A DNA stretch of 64,000 nucleotides from an uncultured bacterium. GTDB taxonomy: Bacteria; Patescibacteriota; Minisyncoccia; Phycocordibacterales; Phycocordibacteraceae. Each line of letters starts with the position of its first letter. Position 1 is the stretch's first letter. Positions 18,473 through 52,357 of this stretch are shown here, in pieces. The position numbers and the translations under genes are program-made. Where the stretch lies: the NCBI GenBank assembly GCA_947085985.1, contig CAMTYL010000003.1:362108-426107 (forward strand), in the 5' to 3' direction. Below the pieces are notes generated by a model that saw only the letters and a list, made by a program, of their open reading frames with translations, did not search any database and was not told the origin of the DNA.

Positions 18473-20257
18473 CTAGCGCCGATTCTTTGCGCGGTCGGAC
18501 TCAGTGAGTCCCTGCTTGCGCAAGCGCACTGACAGCGGAGTGATTTCTAGGTACTCGTCCTCAGTCATCACTTCAAGACCGCGCTCAATCGTGAGTGTGA
18601 AGGCTGGCACCAGGTTGATAGCCTCGTCCATTCCAGAGGAGCGAACGTTGGATTGGTTCTTGCCCTTCGTAGGGTTTGCTACCATTTCCTCGCCCTTAGA
18701 CGTGTTGCCGATGACCATACCCTCATACACTTCAGTCGCAGGAACAATGTAGAGCACACCGCGCTCCTGCAGACTCCACAGTGCGTATCCAAGCGCCTTT
18801 CCAGTAGCCATGGAAATCATGGAGCCTACCTGACGCTTCTTAATCTCACCTGCGTATGGCTTGAAGCCGAGCACGCGACTAGAGAGAATTCCCTCGCCCT
18901 TGGTGTCCACGATGAACTGGTTACGATAGCCAAGAAGTCCACGTGTTGGTCCTTCAAAGGTTAGGCGCACCGTATCGCCCTCCTGTACCAAGTTCTGCAT
19001 CACAAAGGCGCGCGTACCGAGGCGCTCGATGATAGCTCCCTGGTATTCCGTTGGAGTGTCGATGATGACCTCCTCGTACGGCTCTACCTTCACACCCTCC
19101 TCCTCGCGCACAATTACCTGTGGCTGAGACACCTGCATTTCGTATCCAGCACGACGCATATTCTCAAGGAGAATAGCGATGTGGAGCTCTCCACGGCCTG
19201 ACACCTTGAATGCTTCAGGAGATACAAAATCCACCTTAAGACCCACGTTCACTTCAAGCTCGCGTTCAAGGTAGTCGCGCAGCTGACGGCTCGTCACGTA
19301 CTTACCTTCCTTTCCAGCAAACGGTGAGTTGTTCACAAGGAAGTTCACGGTGATGGTTGGCTCATCAATAGCGATTGCTGGCATTGGCTCCATCTCTGGG
19401 TCGGTAGTGATAGTCTCACCGATAAACGCGTCAGCGATACCAGCAATAATAACAATGTCGCCTGCGCCTGCCTCCGGCACGTCCACACGCTCAAGACCTT
19501 TAAAGGTAAATACCTTCGTAATCTTTGCATTGCGGCTCTCGCCATCTGCTTTCTTCACAGTGACCGTCTGTCCTGCCTTCACCGTTCCTTCGTACACACG
19601 TCCAATGGCAAGACGTCCGAGGAAGTTGTCGTATGCCAAGTTAAAAGTCTGAAGCTTTAGCGGCTTTGATGCACTGTCAGCGCTTGAAGTAGGTGCAACC
19701 TGCTCCAGGATAACGTCGAGCAGCGGAGTGAGGTCCTTACGTTCGTCATCAAGCTTGCGCATCGCAACTCCCTCGCGACCAATTGCGTACACCGTAGTGA
19801 AGTCAGACTGCTCGTCAGAGGCTCCCAGTTCTAGGAAGAGCTCAAGCACCTGCTCTTCAGCGCGGTTTGGATCAGCTGCTGGCTTATCAATCTTGTTCAA
19901 AACAACAATAGGCTGCAACCCGAGCTCGAGAGACTTCTTAAGCACGAAGCGAGTCTGTGGCATCGGTCCTTCCTGTGCGTCCACAATAAGGAGCACGGAA
20001 TCAATAGAGCGAAGTACGCGCTCAACCTCAGAACCAAAGTCGGAGTGGCCTGGGGTGTCCACGATGTTGATCTTGGTTCCCTTGTACTCAATAGAGGTGT
20101 TCTTTGAATAAATGGTGATACCACGCTCGTGTTCAAGCGCATTGGAGTCCATGGAGACACCTTCGGCGGCAGCTCCCGTCAGCTTCATGATGGCGTCCGT
20201 GAGCGTGGTCTTGCCGTGGTCCACGTGCGCAATGATAGCGATGTTTCTAATTTCCAT
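18473..20257 (-). CDS. typA: Translational GTPase TypA/BipA
   Basis: AIIAHVDHGKTTL G1, DTPGH, NKIDK motifs; 594 aa. Confidence 0.9.
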   Translation of the reverse strand: MEIRNIAIIAHVDHGKTTLTDAIMKLTGAAAEGVSMDSNALEHERGITIYSKNTSIEYKGTKINIVDTPGHSDFGSEVERVLRSIDSVLLIVDAQEGPMPQTRFVLKKSLELGLQPIVVLNKIDKPAADPNRAEEQVLELFLELGASDEQSDFTTVYAIGREGVAMRKLDDERKDLTPLLDVILEQVAPTSSADSASKPLKLQTFNLAYDNFLGRLAIGRVYEGTVKAGQTVTVKKADGESRNAKITKVFTFKGLERVDVPEAGAGDIVIIAGIADAFIGETITTDPEMEPMPAIAIDEPTITVNFLVNNSPFAGKEGKYVTSRQLRDYLERELEVNVGLKVDFVSPEAFKVSGRGELHIAILLENMRRAGYEMQVSQPQVIVREEEGVKVEPYEEVIIDTPTEYQGAIIERLGTRAFVMQNLVQEGDTVRLTFEGPTRGLLGYRNQFIVDTKGEGILSSRVLGFKPYAGEIKKRQVGSMISMATGKALGYALWSLQERGVLYIVPATEVYEGMVIGNTSKGEEMVANPTKGKNQSNVRSSGMDEAINLVPAFTLTIERGLEVMTEDEYLEITPLSVRLRKQGLTESDRAKNRR

Positions 20258-20335
20258 AGGTAGTACTTGGCGACGAATAAAATAAAAATGCCCCGTGGGC
20301 GATTACCTTTACAATACCGTTATATATACAACTCG

Positions 20336-21337
20336 TCAATGCGCCTTGCGAAAGTTGTTTTGTATATGCTCGCTCAACATGTGGGCATTCCCGTGCTTCA
20401 AGAGCCCCAGGCATGACTGAATACTCTCTTCCTTTCCCTCTATTTCCATGATACGCCGCAGCATTCGTCGCTTGCTGGTGCTCCGTAGAGTGCGATGGTC
20501 AGGGAAATGCACCCAACCGAGAAAGTCTACCCCTGCCGAAAGTGTTCCGATTGATACTTTCCTTGGATGAAGCTCTAATTTCAGACGGGCATGTAGAAAT
20601 TCCTCAATACGAGGAAGGAGTGATTCGAGCAACATGCGGTCTTCCGAGAAGAAAGCAAAGTCATCCGCATACCGTATGTAGTGCTTAGCTTTTAGTTTAT
20701 GCTTTGCAAATTGGTCGAACTCGTTCATGTACACATTCACTAGAAGTTGTGAGGTAAGGTTGCCGAGTGGTAGACCCTTTCCCTTTTCACTACTTGAAAA
20801 GCTTTCGATAACTCTCCCAATGAGCCAGAGCGTATCTTCGTCTGACAAATAGGAACGGAGTATATCCATAAGCACATCTTGGTCTATTGAAGCAAAGAAC
20901 TTTCGAATATCACACTTCAGCACCCAACAGGTACGGGTACCGTTCTTTGATACCTTATAGCCAAATGCTTTGAATCTCTTCATTGCTCTGTGCGTTCCCT
21001 TTTTCTTTCGACATGAAAACGAGTCTGCAATAAAGGTACGGTCAAAGAGCGGATACAGCTTACGGTAAATAGCATGATGCAATAGGCGGTCTCGTACCAG
21101 TGCTTTATGTATATCTCGCGGTTTTGGGTCTGATATCTTAAAGGCCGTATATCCTCCGTGGGTATAGGTTTTCTCTTTTAAATCTTCTTGCAACTTGAAA
21201 ACATGGTGCATGAGAAAGCGTGAGAACTCACGAACATCCATTTTTCTTCGCTTCCCTTTTAGGAATTCGTGCCACGCTTCGAGCAGATTCTCGATTGAGA
21301 TGATATCTTCATATTTATGAACGAAGCGATTTCGCAT
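20336..21337 (-). CDS. Diversity-generating retroelement reverse transcriptase (DGR RT), copy 1
   Basis: 333 aa; YADD catalytic motif; DGR-specific LPLGNLTSQLLVNVYMNEFD (I/LGxxxSQ) motif; strong similarity to the Bordetella phage bRT family layout. Confidence 0.85.
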   Translation of the reverse strand: MRNRFVHKYEDIISIENLLEAWHEFLKGKRRKMDVREFSRFLMHHVFKLQEDLKEKTYTHGGYTAFKISDPKPRDIHKALVRDRLLHHAIYRKLYPLFDRTFIADSFSCRKKKGTHRAMKRFKAFGYKVSKNGTRTCWVLKCDIRKFFASIDQDVLMDILRSYLSDEDTLWLIGRVIESFSSSEKGKGLPLGNLTSQLLVNVYMNEFDQFAKHKLKAKHYIRYADDFAFFSEDRMLLESLLPRIEEFLHARLKLELHPRKVSIGTLSAGVDFLGWVHFPDHRTLRSTSKRRMLRRIMEIEGKEESIQSCLGLLKHGNAHMLSEHIQNNFRKAH

Positions 21338-21371
21338 ACGGCATTTAACGCCCCCCCCCCCACGATCTTTC

Positions 21372-21734
21372 GTGGCCGTCGTAGAGCGTGCAAAAGACCT
21401 CTATCGCGTGTGGCTGCCTGTGCGACGCAGTATGGCGCGGGACGAACGCTTCGGTATTGGCGCAAGAATAGACACCTTACTTCTCGATATTCTTGAGACT
21501 CTGCGAAAGGCAAGTTTTGTAGATACGACAAGCAAACCCGCTCTACTAGGTACAGCGATAGGTATAGCGGACTCATTGCGGTTCTTCTTGCAGATAGCAT
21601 GGGAAAACAAACTGATTGCTAATAAACAATACGAGGAACTCGCGGGTGCTGTCGAGGAGATAGGACGCATGACTGGAGGTTGGAGAAAGGGTGTTCTTAG
21701 TAAAACCCCGCTCAAGCAGAGCGGGGAAAGATAG
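21372..21734 (+). CDS. avd: Accessory variability determinant (Avd) / four-helix-bundle protein, encoded antisense to the DGR RT/TR strand
   Basis: 120 aa, pattern ...GIGARIDTLLLDILETL...LRFFLQIAWENKLIANKQYEELAGAVEEIGRMTGGW typical of Avd/23S-IVS four-helix-bundle family. Confidence 0.7.
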   Translation: MAVVERAKDLYRVWLPVRRSMARDERFGIGARIDTLLLDILETLRKASFVDTTSKPALLGTAIGIADSLRFFLQIAWENKLIANKQYEELAGAVEEIGRMTGGWRKGVLSKTPLKQSGER

Positions 21735-21739
21735 GAGTA

Positions 21740-21843
21740 GCGAGAAACGACGTGGTTGCCGTCGTTCCACTCGTTCGGGTTCGTAACCGGATTGGCTTCG
21801 ACATTCCAGCCGTCGTCGTTCCAGTTGGCGTTCACCGCCCAGA
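21740..21843 (-). repeat. DGR template repeat TR1 (A-rich on minus strand)
   Basis: 104-bp near-identical to 22165-22268; all ~20 mismatches are T (plus) = A (minus) in this copy. Confidence 0.8.
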
Positions 21844-22161
21844 CGATATGTGCATCACGCCATCCGTACCACTGCCCTTTGAATACTCTTAAGGCTGAAT
21901 CTCATGTGGGACCTCGGAAGTCCACGAGCGCAATGCACCTGTTTCTATTCTTTTTTAGAACATCTGCGGACACGCTTGTGCTTGGAATACCTCACGCAAT
22001 TCTCTTCCGCATATGTCCAAGGAGTTGCGTGCGAGCCGTAGCCAACACACCATAACTTCCTTGTTGTCATTGTATCAAAGCAAAGGACCCTCATCCCCAG
22101 TGCCGACAAAGCGACAAAGGTTCAGAGGGTCCAAGGGTCCGAAGACCAAAGTGACTGAGAA

Positions 22162-22779
22162 TCAGCGAGAAACGACGCGGCGGCCGTCGCGCCACTCGAG
22201 CGGGTACGCAACCGGAGAGGCCTCGACACGCCAGCCGTCGACGCCCCAGTCGGCGCCCACCGCCCAGAGGACTCCCTTCGCGTCAGCGACGTAGAAGATG
22301 AACCACTTGGACTTGTCGGCGGTCTTCAGGAACTCGAAGGTGTGCGCCAGGGCGACACGGGCCTTCTCGACCTTGTTCAGATCCTTGTCGCCGAGGGCGG
22401 CGAGGATCGGACCGTCGACAGACGACTTCCGCAGCTTGCGCTGCTTGGCCGTCATGGGCTTCACGTCTTCTTCGACGACATCGAGGAAATTCCCCTTGAA
22501 GTTGTCGCCGAGGTACGAGATCGGGAGTTCCCCGTTCCGATTGACCATGAACTTGTCGCGGGCGACGAAACGCTCGACGGCGGAGAGCTTCACGGGCTCG
22601 CCGACCTGTTCGAGCAAATCCGCGAGGACTTTCGGGGCGGCGGCGTGCTTGGCCTGACCCGCGTTGCCGGGTTCGGTAACAACGAGTTCGCCGCTCAACA
22701 CGCGAGCGATGGCGGATTCGCCACCAATTTTGTTGATGAGCGCCTCGACTTGGCCGAGGTTCACATTGCCGTACTTCAT
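22162..22779 (-). CDS. DGR target (variable) protein 1, 205 aa, C-terminal VR-encoded ligand-binding region
   Basis: C-terminus VLWAVGADWGVDGWRVEASPVAYPLEWRDGRRVVSR matches TR-encoded ...VWAVNANWNDDGWNVEANPVTNPNEWNDGNHVVSR. Confidence 0.75.
   Translation of the reverse strand: MKYGNVNLGQVEALINKIGGESAIARVLSGELVVTEPGNAGQAKHAAAPKVLADLLEQVGEPVKLSAVERFVARDKFMVNRNGELPISYLGDNFKGNFLDVVEEDVKPMTAKQRKLRKSSVDGPILAALGDKDLNKVEKARVALAHTFEFLKTADKSKWFIFYVADAKGVLWAVGADWGVDGWRVEASPVAYPLEWRDGRRVVSR
22165..22268 (-). repeat. DGR variable repeat VR1 at the 3' end of target gene 22162-22779
   Basis: Pairs with TR1; substitutions only at TR adenines; ends at the stop codon. Confidence 0.8.
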
Positions 22780-22981
22780 ATCGTGCTCCTTTCCGACTGT
22801 TTGTCGGAAGCATCCCTCTGCCCGAGGTTATAGGGGCCGTTGGCGGTTCGCCACAGCAGGAAATGGCCCTGTTGAGCCGCTTTCTGCTGTGGCGAAATTC
22901 TCAGCGTTTCAAAGACCAAATAGTCACTATTTATAATACTCTAGTTTGTATACCTTGTCAAGATTTGAAATGGTGCCGAGT

Positions 22982-24007
22982 TTATTTAAGGTACCGATTC
23001 ACATTAGATAGGTGGCCGGCATAGGTAGCCGAACAGCGAATAGTGCCGTTGTTGTCGTGAATGTAGTAGAGACAGTTAGTCTTTACTGGGTTAAGTGCCG
23101 CATCAATTGACGCTAGGGACGGGTTTGCGATTGGGTGCGGTGGCAGTCCACGATACTTATACGTATTAAAGGGAGATTCTAGCTTCTTGTCCTCTGATTG
23201 CGGCATAGGCCACCAATTACCTGGCTCGCCACGTATGTACTGCAGCGTAGCGTCTACCTGCAACCCCATGCCCTTATTAAGACGATTCCACAGAATACCT
23301 GACACAATCTTTCGGTCGTCCGCGGATGCTTCTCGCTCAATTAATGATGCGAGCGTCAGTACATCCGTCCACGGAATATTCCTGCGAGCCGCTTCCCCCG
23401 CATATTCCTTAAACACATCTTGGAATCTGCTTCGCAGGCGCGCCGCTACCAGCGCAGGTGGCTGGTCGGTCGGGATAAGATACGTGTCACCATAGTACAC
23501 ACCCTCAATGAAATCGGGCGAGGGTGCCGTATCAACGGAAAGCCAATGCTCGCGCTCAGCTTCGCTCCAGCCAAGCTTTCGCACCAACAGGTCTGCTATC
23601 TGCTCCTTGCGCCAGCCGCTTGGGAACGTCACCCACGCAAGATACGGAGGCGACGCCAACAGCTTGGCAATCATGAGTGTATCCATACTCGAAGACAGTT
23701 TGTATCCTCCTTCTTGAATTCCCCGTCCGCCGTCGTGCATGCTAAACGCAATAGAGAACGCGGTGCTGCTCTTAATAAATCCTGCGCGACGCAGCTCCTG
23801 CGTCACTTCAAACACCGTAGCGTCCGGATTCACAATAAATTCCCGAGGTTCTCCCGTAATATCCGCTGGACCAAAGTACTGCGCGTACAGCAGCAAGAAT
23901 CCAACGAGCAATACCACAAACGCAGCACCCGAAGCCATAAGCGGTATGCGCCAGCCGGAGCGCGGACGGTACGTGCGTATTCTCTCTAGAACCTGACCAA
24001 GAAGCAT
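22982..24007 (-). CDS. mltG: Endolytic murein transglycosylase MltG (YceG-like)
   Basis: N-terminal TM anchor, YceG-like domain, C-terminal LYYIHDNNGTIRCSATYAGH. Confidence 0.75.
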   Translation of the reverse strand: MLLGQVLERIRTYRPRSGWRIPLMASGAAFVVLLVGFLLLYAQYFGPADITGEPREFIVNPDATVFEVTQELRRAGFIKSSTAFSIAFSMHDGGRGIQEGGYKLSSSMDTLMIAKLLASPPYLAWVTFPSGWRKEQIADLLVRKLGWSEAEREHWLSVDTAPSPDFIEGVYYGDTYLIPTDQPPALVAARLRSRFQDVFKEYAGEAARRNIPWTDVLTLASLIEREASADDRKIVSGILWNRLNKGMGLQVDATLQYIRGEPGNWWPMPQSEDKKLESPFNTYKYRGLPPHPIANPSLASIDAALNPVKTNCLYYIHDNNGTIRCSATYAGHLSNVNRYLK

Positions 24008-37511: not shown

Positions 37512-40500
37512 CTAGTCTAGGTCCTCCGCAAGACGTGCTTCTGGTGTGGATATCTGTGTATTAAGAAATGCTCGTGTACCTGGACCAAAGAGCCCCGTCC
37601 CCTTCGTGAGTCCAATTGGTTTCAAGATTGCTGTAGCATTTGCTTCCTGGTAGCGCTTAAGTGCCAGCTGTGTGCGGGTACCAAAATACTCAGTTTCGTT
37701 TCCAGGCGCTCCTGCTCCGGTGCTCGCTATAGTAAATCCGTGGGTGTTTAAGAATTGCTGCAGGCGTTTAACGTCTGCGTGCGTTTCACCGGCTCTAAGA
37801 GTTCGCTCAAATGAACCGCGGACCAGGAGCACTGGCTGCTGCGACACCTGCGCACTCACATTACTGAAAACGGACAGATGAGACCATCTTGCGACAAGTG
37901 CTGCCGCTTCTGCAAAGTTCCCCATACGCTTAAGCGCCTCTACGCGATCAACGATGCTTACCGAGTAACGTTTTGATGTTGAGGATACGTCCGCCGCGAC
38001 CACGGCTTCAGATTCAGCTTCAGTTTCGGCTTCGTCCCCAAAGATGGCAAAGTCCGAAAAGCTTGTTGTGGTACAGGTCACTGTTTTCGCGCCTGTATTC
38101 ACCGTACAACCAGAGAGTTCAGACCAGGCAGCACCGTCGTAGCGATGTATTTTGAGCGACGTCGCGTCGAGCCCAGAAACGTCGCTGTCACTGTAGGCGA
38201 GGGTTACCGTCACTGGCTCTTCAAATGTAGAAAGCGCAGTAGAGGTATCGGTATATGCGGAAAGATTGTAAACAGTAGTGCCCGCCCGACTCTTCCCACT
38301 TGGACCGGTGACGTTTGAAAAGAAGGTAGAGCCGTCTAGTTTCTTAGCTTGAAAGGATGCCTGCGAGGAACTAGCAGTAAACGATGCCGGTATCGTGAGG
38401 GTGAGCACATCCTGCGTGAGTGTGCCTCCAGACGCTACAGTTATATCGTCTTCATTATTAGCGGTGATGGTGGCACCTCCAGAACACCCAGCTGTCTTGA
38501 AGGTAGAAAGAGAGCTTGTCGCTATTTCATTGGATTCATTCTTACTCACGGTGTAGTACTTGTAGACTGCACACGGGCGCAAGCCAGAGAGATTGACTGA
38601 GTGACTGGTCACACGACTAGACGTGTTTGCTTCAGGCGTCGAAGACGCGAGACCGTTTGTAAATCCAAAGAACATCTTTGATGAGCCTTCAACAGGCGTG
38701 GCCCACGTGACGGTAGCAGCTGAAGTATTCGCTGAGGCCGCAACCCCCGAAGGAGCAGGCTGATTTGCAAGAGTCACCGTACGCGCGGTTGAGGTTGCGT
38801 AGTTATTAGCACTATCACGCGCAACCGCAATGACGGTTTTCGTGCCTGAGGTTGTTGCGGTGAGACTATTCCAAACAATTCCATACGGCGCACTTGTGTC
38901 CTCCGCTCCAACCAACACGTTATTTACGTAGAACTTCACTCCTGCCACTGCTATATTGTCTGATGCATCCGCGGTAATACCAATCGCACTCCCTCGAATC
39001 GTCACTCCGTTATCCGGCAGTGTGAGTACTACTGTTGGCGGAGTCGGGTCGCTTATGTACTCCATGGCACCAATATCAGGTGTGACGTCGCGTGCAGTAC
39101 GCGATTGATCGGCTGTCGGTACCTCAATAGTTACGAGCGCGGTAGTTGTCGCATTATTAATAGCAATACTGTCCGCAAGAAGCGTGAACGCCCCTATATC
39201 GGTATCAAATGTACTGTTTAGGTTGAGCCCTCCCGTCGGACTCGCACTTCCCACCTTCCGATAGACATCGTCTCCTGCTCCAGAACCTGCTTGGTCATAC
39301 CAGGTGTTGGTATTGAGACCGCTGGTGCTCGGGACCTTGCTAATGATGTTGTTGCCGGCGTCCGTGATACCGGAGACATCATACGCTCCCGAGACATCAC
39401 GCAAGTAGGTGCCTTGTTTTTTATTGTTGGCGACGATGGTGTTTTTGAGATGCACCGTTCCTCCTCCGGTACTCACGGCTGGTGTATATGAATTGTTTGA
39501 ACTGAGATGATTGTTTTCCACAATACTTGAGTTGAGTACATAGACCGTTCCTTCGCGCGCAAAGATACCTGAGCCACCGACAGTGGCTGAGCTGGATGTC
39601 TGAGTGTTATATGCAATGGTCGTGTTGATGAGCGTTGCACTTGTTGGGCGCGCAGATTGTGTGCCGGTGTGGCTATTATTGAGCCCGCCACCTTGTGAGT
39701 ATGTGTGATTGTAGAGAATCGCTGAATCGCGCAGGGTGAGCGTTCCTTTGTTGCTTATACCGCCACCCTGGCCGGATGTTGACACTTGCACATAGTTATC
39801 TCGAACATGCACCCGCTCAAGGGTGGTGGTGCCGTTGTTCAAAATACCGCCACCGTCAGACGACGCGCCGCTGGTGAGCCGACCGTGTCGGACCGTGAGG
39901 TCTTGAAGAGTCGTGCTTGCAATTGATGCAATGGTGAACACACTACGGTCTCCCGTGGTTGAGGCAGTCGCTGCCTGGATGATGGTTGAGGTGGCGCTTT
40001 GGCCTCGTATAGTAAAATTGAATCTGCTGATTGTATATCCAGAAGAAACCGCGTCGCCCGTTTCGTCTGTGTCCGTCCAGGTAAATGTGCCGTTAAGATG
40101 TATCGTGTCTCCGTCCAAAGATGCTGTGTAGGCTTTATTAAAAGTTTTGTACGGACTACCTGAAGAACCAGTACCGGTACTATCGTTACCAGTCGAGCTA
40201 TTGGCATAGAGAGTAGTGCCTGCATACGCACTACGCGTTATTGGATTGTTGGCGCCAGAAGTGGTTAGATATTTTTCCTCGGTTTCAATGCCATTGTACT
40301 CAACGACATGCACACGGTAGTTCTTAGCGTAATCTAATCCGGAAATAGCAACACTCGACCCTCTACCTTTGTACACCGCATACCACCCACTTGACCCTAT
40401 CTGATCTCCACCTCTAAAGGTGGTGCTTGCAGTATAGGTAGTGTTATCGACCGGAGCAGCCTGTCCACTCGTAGCATCCTCTTTTACAAAGACTAGACGA

Positions 40501-41831
40501 CGTTCTCCATCTCCGTTTGTCCAGGAAAGGTTCATGTTCCTGTCCGCTACTGTTCCCGCAATTAGCTCACTTCCGGTAGTCGCTGGCGCGGCATTGTTGG
40601 CTGCGTAAAATTCATACGCACCTATGTCTGCCAAGCCCGATCTCGCCTGAATTGCCTGGTCTGTGGAGGGCACGTCAAGAGTTGAGAGCGCGGTGGTGGT
40701 GCTGTTATTAACGGCTATGCTCGTTCCTCCTATGCGAAGATACCCACCGCTTTGTAATACATCGTCCAAAAAAAGTCCTCCTGTGGGGCTCGCACTTCCC
40801 ACCTTTCGATAGACATTGTCTCCTAGTCCAGAACCTGCTTGGTCATACCAGGTGTTTGTGTTGAGGCCGCTCGTGCTTGATATCAAGCTGATGATGTTGT
40901 TTCCGCCATCAGTTATGCCAGACACTTCATAGGCTCCCGAGACATCACGCAAGTAGGTGCCTTGTTTTTTGTTGTTGGCGACAATGGTGTTTTTGAGATG
41001 TACGGTGCCGCCGCCGGTACTCACGGCTGGCGTGTATGAATTATTTGAACTGAGGTGGTTATTCTCCACAATACTTGAGTTGAGTACGTAGACTGTTCCT
41101 TCGCGCGCAAAGATACCTGAGCCACCGACAGTGGCGGATGAGGCCGACTGGGTATTGTATGCAATGGTCGTGTTGACGACATACATCACCGTTGGACGGC
41201 TTCCTTGTGTACCAGTGTGGCTATTATTGAGCCCGCCACCTTGTGAAATCGCATGGTTGTAGAGAATCGCGGAATCTCGTAGAGTGAGCGTTCCTTTGTT
41301 GCTGATACCGCCACCAGTACCGCTGCTTGAAACCTGCGCATAGTTTTCACGGACATGCGCACGCTCGAGGGTGGTGGTGCCGTTGTTCAACATACCGCCA
41401 CCGTCAGACGAACCGCTGGTGAGCCGTCCGTGCCTGATGGTGAGGTCTTGAATTGTGGTCGATGCCGTAGCGTCGATGGTGAACACTCGACGGTCACCCG
41501 TGGTTGAGGCAGTCGCTGCCTGGATGATGGTTGAGGTGGCGCCTTGGCCTCGTATGACGATGTCCTTAGCGAGGGTGTAGCCAGTAGAAGAGCTGTCTCC
41601 TGTCTCGTCGGCACTGCTCCAATCAAAGGTACCCGCAAGATCGATGGTGTCGCCCGCGGTCGCTTCTGTGTATGCCTTATGAAAGGTTTTGTAAGGGTTG
41701 CCTGAGGTTCCATCTCCCGTCGTATCGTTGCCCGTGGAGCTATTGGCGTACCAGGTAGCAGCAAACGCTTCGCTTGCACCAAGCGAAAAGAATAGCGCCA
41801 CCAATACCAGAAACCGTATGCCCCGTACCAT
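37512..41831 (-). CDS. Giant secreted surface protein (1439 aa): signal peptide, two tandem-duplicated right-handed beta-helix (PbH1-like) modules, Ig/FN3-like regions, C-terminal peptidoglycan-binding domain
   Basis: N-terminal MVRGIRFLVLVALFFSLGASEAFA; repeated block SATVGGSGIFAREGTVYVLNSSIVENNHLSSNNSYTPAVSTGGGTVHLKNTIVANNKKQG twice; C-terminal PG_binding_1-like ...DVKRLQQFLN...FGTRTQLALKRYQ. Confidence 0.7.
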   Translation of the reverse strand: MVRGIRFLVLVALFFSLGASEAFAATWYANSSTGNDTTGDGTSGNPYKTFHKAYTEATAGDTIDLAGTFDWSSADETGDSSSTGYTLAKDIVIRGQGATSTIIQAATASTTGDRRVFTIDATASTTIQDLTIRHGRLTSGSSDGGGMLNNGTTTLERAHVRENYAQVSSSGTGGGISNKGTLTLRDSAILYNHAISQGGGLNNSHTGTQGSRPTVMYVVNTTIAYNTQSASSATVGGSGIFAREGTVYVLNSSIVENNHLSSNNSYTPAVSTGGGTVHLKNTIVANNKKQGTYLRDVSGAYEVSGITDGGNNIISLISSTSGLNTNTWYDQAGSGLGDNVYRKVGSASPTGGLFLDDVLQSGGYLRIGGTSIAVNNSTTTALSTLDVPSTDQAIQARSGLADIGAYEFYAANNAAPATTGSELIAGTVADRNMNLSWTNGDGERRLVFVKEDATSGQAAPVDNTTYTASTTFRGGDQIGSSGWYAVYKGRGSSVAISGLDYAKNYRVHVVEYNGIETEEKYLTTSGANNPITRSAYAGTTLYANSSTGNDSTGTGSSGSPYKTFNKAYTASLDGDTIHLNGTFTWTDTDETGDAVSSGYTISRFNFTIRGQSATSTIIQAATASTTGDRSVFTIASIASTTLQDLTVRHGRLTSGASSDGGGILNNGTTTLERVHVRDNYVQVSTSGQGGGISNKGTLTLRDSAILYNHTYSQGGGLNNSHTGTQSARPTSATLINTTIAYNTQTSSSATVGGSGIFAREGTVYVLNSSIVENNHLSSNNSYTPAVSTGGGTVHLKNTIVANNKKQGTYLRDVSGAYDVSGITDAGNNIISKVPSTSGLNTNTWYDQAGSGAGDDVYRKVGSASPTGGLNLNSTFDTDIGAFTLLADSIAINNATTTALVTIEVPTADQSRTARDVTPDIGAMEYISDPTPPTVVLTLPDNGVTIRGSAIGITADASDNIAVAGVKFYVNNVLVGAEDTSAPYGIVWNSLTATTSGTKTVIAVARDSANNYATSTARTVTLANQPAPSGVAASANTSAATVTWATPVEGSSKMFFGFTNGLASSTPEANTSSRVTSHSVNLSGLRPCAVYKYYTVSKNESNEIATSSLSTFKTAGCSGGATITANNEDDITVASGGTLTQDVLTLTIPASFTASSSQASFQAKKLDGSTFFSNVTGPSGKSRAGTTVYNLSAYTDTSTALSTFEEPVTVTLAYSDSDVSGLDATSLKIHRYDGAAWSELSGCTVNTGAKTVTCTTTSFSDFAIFGDEAETEAESEAVVAADVSSTSKRYSVSIVDRVEALKRMGNFAEAAALVARWSHLSVFSNVSAQVSQQPVLLVRGSFERTLRAGETHADVKRLQQFLNTHGFTIASTGAGAPGNETEYFGTRTQLALKRYQEANATAILKPIGLTKGTGLFGPGTRAFLNTQISTPEARLAEDLD

Positions 41832-49389: not shown

Positions 49390-50385
49390 TTAAATAGTTA
49401 CACTATCCTGTAACGTTTGGACTCTGGTGGCGAGCTTTCTCGTATTTCCATGAGACATTAGGCCGAAATATGAACTCAGTCGTTCCTTGGACGTATTGTT
49501 CCTGAGCTTCGTAAACATCCTCCTTTTACTTACAGTCCTCAATACCCTGTGATCTGAGAAATGCACCCAGCCAAGAAAGTCCACGCCCGACGCAAAGGAC
49601 TTTATATATACCTTGTCCGGGTGCATGGTTAGTCCAAGATTGGTTTCTAGGAATTCATTCAACTGAGGGATGAGTGATTCAAGGTATCCTCGGTCTTCAC
49701 TGAGGAATACGAAATCATCAGCGTAGCGTATGTAGTACTTTGCCCGGAGACGGTGTTTAACGAACTGGTCGAATTCATTCATATACACGTTCGCGAAGAG
49801 TTGTGATGTGAGATTGCCAAGAGGTAGTCCCGTTTTAGGTGTAACCTCGAAGCTGGAGATTATCTCTCGTAAAAGATTCAGAATGTCTGGATCAGGAATA
49901 TGGGATTCAAGAATGGTCATCAGTTTGTTGTGCTTCATGGAGGCAAAGAACTTCCTGATATCGCACTTCAATACCCAGACCGTTCGAGTGTTATTGCGTC
50001 CTACCTTCTGAGAGAAAGCTTTGAATCTATCGAGAGCTTTATGTATGCCCTTTCCGTCACGACAGGAGTACGAGTCATGGATAAAGGTAGTATCAAAGAA
50101 TGGATATAGTTGGCGATATAGAGCGTGGTGCAGGAGCCGATCACGCACATTAGCCTTATGAATAATGCGAGGCTTGGGGTCAGAGATATTGAAACTTATA
50201 TATCCGCCATTGCGATACGACCTATTCTTTAAATCAGCGTGTAGGTCGAGGACGTGTCCCATGAGATTCGTTTCAAACTCCCGCACATCCTTTCGGGCGC
50301 GTTTTCCGTTCAAAAACTCTCGCCATGCGTCGAGTAGATTCTCCGTCGAGATGATATCTTGATATCTATGTCCGTACGCTCTCAT
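49390..50385 (-). CDS. DGR reverse transcriptase, copy 2 (paralog, ~60% aa identity to copy 1)
   Basis: YADD, LPLGNLTSQLFANVYMNEFD motifs. Confidence 0.85.
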   Translation of the reverse strand: MRAYGHRYQDIISTENLLDAWREFLNGKRARKDVREFETNLMGHVLDLHADLKNRSYRNGGYISFNISDPKPRIIHKANVRDRLLHHALYRQLYPFFDTTFIHDSYSCRDGKGIHKALDRFKAFSQKVGRNNTRTVWVLKCDIRKFFASMKHNKLMTILESHIPDPDILNLLREIISSFEVTPKTGLPLGNLTSQLFANVYMNEFDQFVKHRLRAKYYIRYADDFVFLSEDRGYLESLIPQLNEFLETNLGLTMHPDKVYIKSFASGVDFLGWVHFSDHRVLRTVSKRRMFTKLRNNTSKERLSSYFGLMSHGNTRKLATRVQTLQDSVTI

Positions 50386-50427
50386 ACCTCCAAGGCTACC
50401 CCCCCCCCGACACTTCCAGTGCTAGTG

Positions 50428-50760
50428 CAGGTCAAAAGTGTGTATATCCTTTGGAACTCTTACGCCGCAAAAATTCCTAAGACCGCTAAGTACTCTCTTG
50501 GTCTCAAGATAGATAATCTGTTTATAGATACGATTGAAGCAATTTCAATTGCCGCATTCCTACAGCGTGCCGAGAAACTTCCCTATCTCAAGAGAGCAAT
50601 TGCGCGAGTCGATACCCTGAAAGTCTTTCTACAGCTTGTATGGGAAATGAAGCTACTAGATACTAAGCAGTATGCGGAGATTTCAGAGAAGCTCTCGGAA
50701 GTAGGAAAAATGCTTGGAGGCTGGTACGGACAGGTAGTAAAGCAAAACTCCCCTGCATAG
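50428..50760 (+). CDS. avd: Avd-like four-helix-bundle protein, copy 2 (antisense to RT/TR strand); start uncertain
   Basis: ...KYSLGLKIDNLFIDTIEAI...LKVFLQLVWEMKLLDTKQYAEISEKLSEVGKMLGGW. Confidence 0.65.
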   Translation, partial: QVKSVYILWNSYAAKIPKTAKYSLGLKIDNLFIDTIEAISIAAFLQRAEKLPYLKRAIARVDTLKVFLQLVWEMKLLDTKQYAEISEKLSEVGKMLGGWYGQVVKQNSPA

Positions 50761-50781
50761 GCAGGAGAGAAATGAAGTAAG

Positions 50782-50907
50782 TTGCGAAGACGGAACACGA
50801 TGCGATTGTCGAGGTTCCACTGATTGTCGGGATTCGTCCAGTTCGTATTGAGCCACTGCTTGCCGTCCGAGTTCCGCTTGACGTTGAAGACGTTCGGGTT
50901 GCCGTCG
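50782..50907 (-). repeat. DGR template repeat TR2
   Basis: ~126 bp matching 51274-51398; ~24 mismatches, all TR-adenine (T on plus strand). Confidence 0.8.
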
Positions 50908-51257
50908 GAATCGGTTTGAGCGCCACACCATCTGTACCACCACCCCTTGAAAGTTCTTGGGGTTGAATCTTATGTGTGATCGTAATCACCAGTGTGACGC
51001 ACCAAGTATCTTCATTTTTGAAGTTTCTGCATACACCACGCTAGTTCAAATCGTAGTCGGAACTATTCTGGGTTGTATGGATACTGGGTTCGGTAGCAGA
51101 CGAGCCTATGGCTCCCGCGTATTCACCTACTGCCGTTTTTAAATATACCGTATGTAAATGTAGAAAGTCCCCGGGCGCATCACTGCGGCCGGGGACCCTT
51201 GATCGGAAGGACAAAGTATCAGAGGGACAAAGAGCCGAAGCTCTAGTCCCAAGGATC

Positions 51258-51956
51258 TTAGTCCTGAGTGACCTTGCGAAGACGGAACACGATGCGATTG
51301 CCGAGGCTCCACTGATTGCCGGGATGCGTCCAGTCCGCAATGAGCCACCGCTCGCCGCCCGAGCCCCGCCCGACGCGGAAGACGCTCGGGCGGCCGCCGG
51401 AAGCGGTAATCCGTTCCATCGCGATCCAGAGGACTTCGCCGTTGGGCTGATCCTTGTACTGGTCGCGGATGTGCGGACCCGCTTCCGCCGGAAGCAGTTC
51501 GACGACGTGGCCGTCGAGCCGTTCGGCGTTCTGCGCGCTCCACTCGGCAAGCCGGGTGGGATCGAGCAGTTCGGTCGTGGTCGGCATGCGCTCATAGCCG
51601 AAGTCGGCAGGGGTGAGGATGATCGTATCGATTTCCTCCTCCTTGTCGAGCGTCGTGAAGGCGTGGTTGTTGACCAGGCTCTTGGCGTAGTCGCTGACCG
51701 TGAAGCCAGCTTCGACGCGCTTGATGAGCGCCTTCTTGGCGACGCCGCCGATCAGGAACGTCCGCCACTTGGCGAACGCAGGCGTGACCACCAACAGGGG
51801 CGGTTCGGGCGTCTTCCCTTCGATGACGGCCTGGAGGGCCTTCATCACGTCGTCGAAGTTGGCATAGGAGCCGGACTTCACACGCCGGAACAGGTCGTTT
51901 TGGCGGACGGCGAGCTGACCCAGCTGACCGTCGGTGACAAGAGTCTTGGTATTCAT
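51258..51956 (-). CDS. DGR target (variable) protein 2 (233 aa from ATG 51956), paralog of target 1
   Basis: Shared FTVSDYAKSL../ISYLGDNFKGNF.. core and VR-encoded C-terminus ...ERWLIADWTHPGNQWSLGNRIVF. Confidence 0.7.
   Translation of the reverse strand: MNTKTLVTDGQLGQLAVRQNDLFRRVKSGSYANFDDVMKALQAVIEGKTPEPPLLVVTPAFAKWRTFLIGGVAKKALIKRVEAGFTVSDYAKSLVNNHAFTTLDKEEEIDTIILTPADFGYERMPTTTELLDPTRLAEWSAQNAERLDGHVVELLPAEAGPHIRDQYKDQPNGEVLWIAMERITASGGRPSVFRVGRGSGGERWLIADWTHPGNQWSLGNRIVFRLRKVTQD
51274..51398 (-). repeat. DGR variable repeat VR2 at the 3' end of target gene 51258-51956
   Basis: Pairs with TR2; A-specific substitution pattern. Confidence 0.8.
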
Positions 51957-52357
51957 GATATACCTCGTCGTGACAGTACTTTGCCGTTCAAGCTCACCAG
52001 TGTTCGGGTTCGCCACAGCGGAGAATGGCCTAGATAAGCCGCTCTTCGCTGTGGCGAATTCGCAAGGTTTTCAAGGAACAAGTCCGTACCACAGTATCAC
52101 AATATACGGGTAAAGTCAAGTCATTTTGACCGTTCCCGCTCAGAAGAATATCCTTATCAAATATGAGCCAAATAGTTATCGGGGTCGTCATTGCCGTTAT
52201 ATCGGCCATCATCATTTCCCTATTCCGAATTGGTGGAAATCAGAACGTAACGGTACATCACGTACAAAGCACTCATCGTGCTGGGACTCTTTGGAAACTA
52301 ATGATTGTTCTAGGCTGGGGCAGTGAAGTTCCCTCGCGAAGGAGCGGAGCAGCTTAT

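Follow-up and report, generated by a model that had tools for sequence, protein, structure and literature searches.

The 64-kb stretch of DNA analyzed here (the window) is part of contig CAMTYL010000003.1 from an uncultured bacterium. Between the genes for TypA/BipA (18473–20257) and a YceG/MltG protein (22982–24007), it carries a cassette that is very probably a complete diversity-generating retroelement (DGR) of the type found in Patescibacteria, or candidate phyla radiation (CPR), and that we designate DGR1. Read along the minus strand, the cassette consists of the gene for a small target protein that ends in the variable repeat (VR), a noncoding interval, the template repeat (TR), and the gene for a reverse transcriptase (RT). 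The gene for the accessory variability determinant (avd) is found between TR and the RT gene in reverse orientation. A preliminary description of this DNA had placed the cassette between typA and mltG in housekeeping surroundings, and the annotation of the neighboring genes agrees. A sister cassette, DGR2, is found elsewhere in the window.

Template and Variable Repeats

TR and VR form a repeat of approximately 108 nt in minus-strand sense. The repeat search paired 21739–21846 with 22164–22271 at 81% identity, and the two copies are exactly identical onward to 21848 and 22273. At a constant offset of 425, the ungapped alignment of 21740–21843 with 22165–22268 covers 104 nt and contains 20 mismatches. 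A base-by-base tally of this alignment demonstrated that all 20 are T in the plus-strand copy of TR, that is, A on the minus sense strand. The changes from TR to VR, given for the plus strand, are T to C (11), T to G (5), and T to A (4). There are 26 TR adenines within the 104 nt, and 20 of them are substituted in VR; the chance that all 20 mismatches would fall at TR adenines is (26/104)^20, or less than 1e-12.

The 5′ edge of the TR/VR homology is fuzzy, with differences at positions other than adenine in codons 169–171. In frame, VR makes up codons 172–205 of the 205-residue open reading frame (ORF) of the target, whose stop codon and the end of the homology overlap. When the 111 nt of codons 169–205 were compared, 27 of the 28 TR adenines were found at codon position 1 or 2, and TR was found to contain seven AAC and two AAT codons (nine AAY); no TR codon can be mutated to a stop codon. 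The preliminary description had reported a near-identity of about 104 bp with mismatches at adenines only, a VR formed by the last 34 or so codons of the target, and a TR rich in asparagine codons; each of these statements is confirmed by the alignment.

The two repeats share the 14 nt at their 3′ ends, and their flanks part directly thereafter, VR continuing with GATTCTCAG and TR with ACTCCTATC. By analogy with IMH and IMH* (initiation of mutagenic homing) of the Bordetella phage, this shared end may have an IMH-like role.

Reverse Transcriptase, Avd, and Related Cassettes

The RT contains the sequences IRYADDF, with the catalytic YxDD, and LPLGNLTSQ, as the preliminary description had noted in part (YADD and LGNLTSQ). 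The DGR clade of RTs is marked by YxDD together with [ILV]GxxxSQ instead of the QGxxxSP of group II enzymes. The RT matches Pfam RVT_1 with an E value of 1.4e-20. The nearest solved relative is the 328-residue reverse transcriptase 8ub7_A, which aligns over the full length with an E value of 7.8e-45 and in which IPIGSLTSQ is aligned with LPLGNLTSQ. The entries 8ub7–8ube are bRT-Avd-RNA structures from the Bordetella phage. Matches to retron and group II RTs reach approximately 1e-18 only, which is weaker than 8ub7_A by 27 orders of magnitude. The avd gene is on the strand opposite to that of RT, TR, and target, and its product matches Pfam bAvd (5.8e-12, 46.5 bits) above the cut-off of 40. Avd is found in most, but not all, DGRs. 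All of the defining components are therefore present, as had been claimed, together with an Avd gene that had been overlooked. The features of the locus are listed in Table 1.

Table 1. Features of DGR1 and DGR2, with positions in the window
Feature	Position	Strand	Basis
DGR reverse transcriptase, 333 aa	20336..21337	-	ORF list, motifs, profile and structure-library matches
Homopolymer tract, 11 C (+) / 11 G (RT sense)	21351..21361		run scan, related loci
avd (accessory variability determinant), 120 aa, GTG start	21372..21734	+	Pfam bAvd, NCBIfam DivGenRetAVD
TR 3′ flank, pairing segment and hairpin	21702..21738	-	terminator scan, duplex energies
TR	21739..21848	-	repeat alignment
Structured 5′ leader of putative template RNA, ~215 nt	21849..22060	-	RNAalifold, covariance model
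Leader helix P1	22049-22028	-	
Leader helix P2	22013-22005/21971-21964	-	
Leader helix P3	21999-21976	-	
Leader A-rich linker	21963-21939	-	
Leader helix P4	21938-21927/21861-21850	-	
Leader helix P5	21923-21909	-	
Leader helix P6	21895-21874	-	
Extended -10 box TTTGATACAAT, proposed template-RNA promoter	22069..22079	-	motif count vs shuffles
VR 3′ flank, degenerate 8-nt array (CTTNGnnn) and terminator-like stem	22085..22153	-	motif spacing, fold
Target gene, 205 aa, Shine-Dalgarno AAGGAG 7 nt before ATG	22162..22779	-	ORF list, homologue search
IMH-like 3′ end CGTCGTTTCTCGCT, same in VR and TR	22164..22177	-	TR/VR alignment, five loci
VR (target codons 172-205)	22164..22273	-	repeat alignment and family alignment
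Target promoter-like site TTGACA-17-TATTAT, 11/12 matches	22933..22961	-	consensus scan
DGR2	49390-52016		
DGR2 RT	49390-50385		
DGR2 avd	~50410-50760		
DGR2 TR	50782-50915		
DGR2 VR	51274-51407		
DGR2 target	51258-52016		

A metagenome scan with the RT returned more than 556 relatives, from which 80 loci with RT identities of 59–76% were kept. The avd gene is reversed and directly upstream of RT in every one of these loci where it was detected. A TR/VR pair was found in 36 of the metagenomic loci, always in the order VR, TR, (avd), RT, with VR located 360–820 nt (mostly 430–500 nt) upstream of TR. These 36 loci and others, including the two DGRs of the window, make up a set of 41 that was filtered by requiring TR adenines to account for no fewer than 75% of the mismatches. 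The order VR, TR, (avd), RT is the same in 41 of 41, and in most of them all mismatches are at TR adenines.

Predicted Template RNA

The interval between VR and TR is 315 nt in length and contains, in order downstream of VR, a terminator-like stem, an extended -10 box, and a structured leader. The stem is formed by GGACCCTC...GAGGGTCC and is followed by TTTGCTTTG; a hairpin and T-run are present after VR in 24 of 40 loci. The target stop codon is followed by four to seven degenerate 8-nt units (CCTTGGAC / CTTTGACC / CTTAGTCC). In the 41 VR flanks, the distances between motifs peak at 8 and 16 nt, and the sequences CCCTT and CTTTG are enriched 13-fold and 9-fold, respectively; no such peaks are found in the TR flanks. 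Tandem Repeats Finder detects merely a 2-copy fragment of the array. This array may be a target-site marker that replaces the cruciform of the Bordetella phage.

The motif TGnTAnnnT is found in 32 of 40 VR–TR spacers, compared with 15.0 ± 3.3 in shuffled sequences. In DGR1 this extended -10 box is directly upstream of the conserved leader, and it may be the promoter for the template RNA.

The leader is conserved as a structure. RNAalifold, applied to 33 loci, gave 49 base pairs in six helices, 43 of which show compensatory changes. The fraction of leader cells that are paired is 92.8%, compared with 67.7% after shuffling, and the covariation is 0.797, compared with 0.285 for shuffled alignments and 0.13–0.20 for slid partners. 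A covariance model of the 3′ domain of the leader was built from 29 metagenomic loci, with the window and its orthologues left out. The only matches to this model in the 64 kb are at 21849–21956 (E value of 1e-16) and 50917–51020 (E value of 2e-18), and these adjoin the 5′ ends of TR1 and TR2, respectively. A search of 20000–23200 against Rfam 15 at E values up to 1 gave no relevant match, with one chance match to IRES_Bag1 at 18 bits. In the whole window no Rfam family reached its gathering score, and there was no match to a tRNA, rRNA, or riboswitch model.

On the other side of TR, the flanking sequence CTCCTATCTTT is complementary to the A-rich linker of the leader and is followed by a hairpin, CCCCGCTC-TGCTT-GAGCGGGG, and TTTT. 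The linker pairs with the 10–12 nt following TR. The mean duplex energy of the linker and flank is -7.98 kcal/mol for partners from the same locus and -5.68 kcal/mol when the partners come from different loci; the mean for the own partners was reached in 0 of 5000 permutations. The duplex also shows A:U to C:G switches, as in GAAGAU/UCUUC versus GAAGCU/GCUUC. The GC-rich hairpin and T-run (21726–21706) overlap the 3′ end of avd on the opposite strand. Under a strict definition, a hairpin and T-run follow TR in 30 of 40 distinct loci, with stems that differ in sequence, and the hairpin looks like a terminator and/or an Avd-binding stem-loop. With the ends predicted in this way, the template RNA would be a minus-strand transcript of approximately 400 nt.

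No description of the structured leader of approximately 215 nt was found in Wu et al. or Roux et al. Handa et al. have predicted stem-loops after TR, and duplexes between the upstream and downstream segments, in many DGRs, including those of CPR (10.1101/2023.10.23.563531), and thus the principle of the pairing is already known.

Repeat at the avd–RT Junction

The start codons of the divergent avd and RT genes are separated by 34 nt, and the homopolymer tract is within this gap, 13 nt upstream of the RT ATG. There are only two G/C runs of at least 8 nt in the 64 kb, and the second (10 nt, 50399–50408) is at the same place in DGR2. A simple repeat is present at the avd–RT junction in 69 of 73 related loci, compared with 0.019 per kb elsewhere in those loci. 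The repeating units are G (60), GA (4), GT/TG (4), TC (1), and CTGG (1). The 60 counted G tracts are 7–12 nt in length with a mode of 9–10, and tracts of G6 to G14 were seen across all loci; the junctions without G tracts carry (GT)n, (GA)n, (CT)n, or (CTGG)n. In four Logan assemblies of this strain, the tract is 12 G in length, compared with 11 in the window, and this is the sole difference across 2.2–3.5 kb. It could reflect slippage or a difference in assembly.

Two explanations for the tract were rejected. A Shine-Dalgarno-like element is not supported, since the tract is located anywhere from 3 to 45 nt from the RT start and other units, including CT, can substitute for G. A sequencing artifact is not supported either, since the tracts are internal to contigs, occur at the same position in many studies, and are replaced in some loci by di- and tetranucleotide repeats. 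A role at the level of the DNA is the most economical explanation, because the repeating unit is interchangeable and works in either orientation. We hypothesize that the tract allows slipped-strand variation of the spacing in overlapping divergent promoters, or else that it adopts a non-B DNA structure. The motif TAnnnT directly follows the tract in 20 of 60 loci, with 8.7 ± 2.7 expected. A model in which the tract is a clean spacer between -35 and -10 elements fits the group of locus L015 (TTGCGA, then 7 nt and the G tract, then TAGCTT); the -35 matches in DGR1 are poor, and the model is only partly supported.

Known simple-sequence contingency loci of promoters include the TA repeats between the divergent hifA and hifB genes of Haemophilus and the poly-G/C tracts in the porA and opc promoters of Neisseria and the fim promoters of Bordetella. 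The junction tract resembles these in its location between two divergent genes, in its variation in length among related loci, and in the use of other units at the same place. It differs from them in that the promoter elements are only partly recognizable and in that, with the length variation known among related loci, an effect on expression is hypothetical. No description of a junction repeat in DGRs was found in the full-text literature that was searched; the principal CPR DGR paper, that of Paul et al. 2017, was outside that search.

Target Protein

The target has no match to a Pfam or NCBIfam family. Approximately 131 homologues were found, nearly all of which are unnamed or from Patescibacteria. 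The family alignment has the scaffold LWAVxAxWxxxGWxVxAxSVxxPxxWxxGxxVVSR, in which the variable x positions are those encoded by TR adenines. The AlphaFold model has a pLDDT (predicted local distance difference test) of 87.5 and is confident for residues 50–205; a profile search of the PDB with the target gave no match. A C-type lectin fold, as in the DGR variable proteins Mtd and Treponema TvpA (2y3c) and in FGE-like domains, is weakly indicated. The protein is without a signal peptide, a hydrophobic segment, or cysteine, and the highest hydropathy over 19 residues is 0.99. It had been described as small and non-secreted-looking, which is supported, and it is apparently cytoplasmic or exported by a nonclassical route. 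Its putative role is ligand binding.

The site at 22933–22961, approximately 150 nt upstream of the target start codon, is a candidate promoter. Homology to a cassette found in a different genomic context (locus L007) begins at 22915. The 5′ untranslated region (UTR) of approximately 150 nt (22780–22932, minus strand) contains an 11-bp hairpin, CGCCACAGCAG...CTGCTGTGGCG; it is conserved with the L007 cassette and has no Rfam match.

Three further observations concern the target genes. The GC content at third codon positions (GC3) of the two targets in the window (stretches 22274–22779 and 51408–52016) is 0.82–0.84, compared with 0.47–0.51 for the RTs and 0.56–0.60 for neighboring genes, and GC3 is higher in the target than in the RT in 34 of 36 related cassettes (means of 0.64 and 0.49). 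A homologue of 192 residues with 50% identity and the same VR scaffold is encoded in Novosphingobium resinovorum contig JAZFAX010000009.1 (locus L009, 4001–4579). Its GC content is native to this alphaproteobacterial contig, it has a 4-nt overlap with the upstream gene, and there is no TR within 4 kb; a transfer of the target family between phyla is possible. In a Kaiserbacteria metagenome-assembled genome (MAG; locus L005, 5001–5593), a frameshift or an assembly error breaks the target orthologue into a pair of overlapping ORFs.

Activity of DGR1 and DGR2

The orthologous locus L006 has a TR1 identical to that of the window, and the two loci are approximately 82% identical overall. At adenine sites, the VRs of L006, L007, and L010 are different, and VR has thus been turned over between related loci. 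In L006, L007, L005, L010, and DGR2, VR departs from TR at adenines, the sole exceptions being a single C/T difference in L005 and another in L010, and TR is conserved. The differences in VR across loci, together with the identity of TR1, indicate that the system has been active over evolutionary time and that the template is constrained.

DGR2 is of the same design as DGR1, and 21 of its 21 TR/VR mismatches are at TR adenines. The RTs of the two cassettes are 61% identical and the Avd proteins are 32% identical. The DGR2 target, with 252 residues, has no Pfam match and no detectable sequence similarity to the DGR1 target. When DGR2 in the window was compared with its counterpart in Logan assembly ERR4904395 (L096), just 7 differences were found in 3201 nt. 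All 7 are inside VR2 (51293–51326), and every one is at a TR2 adenine. These differences show directly that mutagenic homing has occurred recently in this organism, and the machinery of this family of cassettes is therefore active here.

Several observations weigh against the reading of DGR1 as a complete and working DGR. VR1 is identical in the window and in Logan assemblies ERR4904395, ERR3478703, ERR3478709, and ERR3478701, and the cluster of VR1 at 90% contains this one sequence alone. Given this invariance in five assemblies, nothing shows directly that DGR1 diversifies at present. The match of Avd to NCBIfam DivGenRetAVD (1.1e-16, 61 bits) is under the equivalog cut-off of 80. The hairpin downstream of VR has only 4 bp, unlike the Bordetella cruciform, and the ends proposed for the template RNA are predictions.

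The invariance of VR1 would be explained if DGR1 were intact but silent or frozen, either because VR1 has been fixed by selection or because the element has been turned off, as might happen through poly-G tract length, so that only DGR2 is active in this population. The 7 adenine-templated differences in VR2 between two assemblies, and the tract length of 11 or 12 G as the only difference in the DGR1 region, are both consistent with this. We consider it the less likely explanation, although one that deserves to be kept in mind. All of the ORFs of DGR1 are intact, and VR already differs from TR at 20 of the 26 TR adenines. The identity of TR with that of L006, despite a divergence of approximately 18% between the loci, implies purifying selection on the template. 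In addition, no more than one or two studies may lie behind the four Logan samples, and variants in the minority are hidden in a consensus assembly.

Host and Genomic Site

The relatives of the window's TypA with 87–92% identity are named Patescibacteria, Candidatus Paceibacterota, or Parcubacteria, which places the host in Patescibacteria; the homologues of the target carry the same host names. Among species-representative genomes that carry the cassette, the closest is a MAG of Candidatus Kaiserbacteria. A profile search of genome contigs with a narrower alignment found two loci only.

The RT stop codon (CAT TGA CG) overlaps the -35 box (TTGACG) of a typA promoter-like site (20311–20339), so that the downstream cassette edge and this putative promoter coincide exactly. 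This promoter is conserved in relatives without a DGR. The occupancy of the mltG–typA site varies among strains. The orthologous cassette in L006 is between mltG and typA, and the cassette in L007 is beside unrelated genes. In L010 (4001–4851), the target is alone at the site, with a DGR-type VR and without TR, avd, or RT; this VR differs from the TR of the window at adenines and by one C to T change, and the N-terminal 45 residues of the target are different. L097 (3641–4501), with a TypA that is 99% identical, has a gene for a HAD hydrolase at the site. In L099 (4417–4501) and L100, where TypA is 95% identical, mltG is directly followed by typA and the site is empty. The sequence ATTGACG at the L010 junction was considered as a remnant of the RT 3′ end, and hence as proof of a deletion, and was rejected; it is the typA -35 box and is also present in L097, which has no DGR.

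The variable occupancy of the site, the other context of the L007 cassette, and a mosaic composition (44% GC for the RT, 61% for the target, and 51% for the window) would fit a cassette that belongs to a phage or other mobile element rather than a resident chromosomal system. We regard this as improbable, because no integrase, transposase, or phage structural gene was found within several kb of DGR1, because the housekeeping flanks are in conserved order, and because the DGR clade of Patescibacteria is almost entirely cell-encoded (Roux et al., PMC8144416). DGR1 is chromosomal, yet part of the flexible genome. The preliminary description had called it chromosomal and host-adopted. The first term is appropriate; a special adoption by the host is not supported, as the cassette is a stereotyped one of CPR bacteria and is strain-variable.

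That DGR1 is an ordinary diverged duplication beside a group II intron, retron, or defense RT can be dismissed, since this reading is refuted by the mismatch tally. The sub-threshold NCBIfam matches to models of group II intron, Drt, and retron RTs are all far under their cut-offs, and the nearest solved relative is 8ub7_A by a wide margin; the adjacent Avd gene and the same pattern in 36 related metagenomic loci also speak against it.

In another part of the window (39226–41555) there are two tandem gene-sized copies of approximately 1.5 kb, 83–86% identical with a spacing of 1545–1548 nt, which are probably tandem paralogues.

Proposed Mechanism

If DGR1 is a complete DGR of the CPR type, it would be expected to operate as follows. 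A template RNA of approximately 400 nt would be transcribed from the minus strand, with a structured leader followed by TR and by a short flanking segment that folds back to pair with this leader, and would end at the hairpin and U-run. RT and Avd would be expressed divergently from the 34-nt junction with the poly-G/C tract. The two proteins would then bind the template RNA, presumably prime synthesis in cis, and copy TR to cDNA with random bases opposite the template adenines. The cDNA would replace the homologous VR, directed by the shared IMH-like 3′ end, and up to 15 C-terminal codons of a small protein with a distant lectin-like fold would be recoded.

We propose, quite tentatively and as something that may well prove wrong, that the junction repeat is a slipped-strand contingency switch that gates avd and RT in subpopulations, with the template made as a separate, terminated, and structured noncoding RNA of approximately 400 nt from a family that is absent from Rfam.

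Comparison with Known Systems

DGR1 is like the known CPR DGRs in its gene order with a reversed avd, its host phylum, its chromosomal location, its small target without recognizable domains, and its C-terminal VR. Architecture B3, TR-(avd)-RT with a reverse-strand avd, makes up 90% of the CPR DGRs in Wu et al. 2018 (PMC5758913). Roux et al. 2021 described a DGR clade 2 that is restricted to Patescibacteria, with targets that are typically without transmembrane or other conserved domains (PMC8144416). Nothing essential is different in DGR1. Its target family (~200 aa, LWAVxAxW...VVSR) is without a Pfam model and could be one of the unclassified UVR1-6 classes of Wu et al. DGRs of this kind are thus already known in Patescibacteria; the control features, namely the junction repeat and the structured template RNA, were not found described in the literature that was searched.

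The DGR of Bordetella phage BPP-1 (mtd-avd-TR-brt) has a homologous RT and Avd, the same adenine-specific transfer from TR to VR, and, like DGR1, a shared 3′ end with divergent flanks. BPP-1 requires RNA both upstream and downstream of TR, and in DGR1 both segments are conserved and paired. The upstream RNA is avd coding sequence in BPP-1 and a noncoding leader in DGR1. Because avd is inverted in DGR1, RNA downstream of TR runs antisense to this gene, unlike that of BPP-1. Also unlike BPP-1, the TR of DGR1 is followed by a terminator-like hairpin and U-run, and its VR is followed by the 8-nt periodic array instead of an 8-bp GC cruciform. A GC-rich inverted repeat follows VR in only 34% of the DGRs examined by Wu et al. 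(PMC5758913). Finally, DGR1 is cellular rather than phage-borne, and its target is not a tail fiber.

Conclusions

DGR1 is one more example of a well-documented class, in that CPR bacteria are known to be rich in chromosomal DGRs with an inverted avd and small targets without known domains. The interest is in the conserved regulatory and RNA features of this clade. The two sister DGRs in the window, of which only DGR2 shows directly that it has been active recently, provide a natural comparison. The supported structure of the template RNA, with candidate ends, could guide the in vitro reconstitution of a CPR DGR as well as the annotation of others. The near-universal hypermutable repeat between avd and RT, found by comparing approximately 80 cassettes, provides a testable hypothesis for how the cost of self-mutation may be limited; if it is correct, a hypermutable switch would gate a targeted hypermutator.

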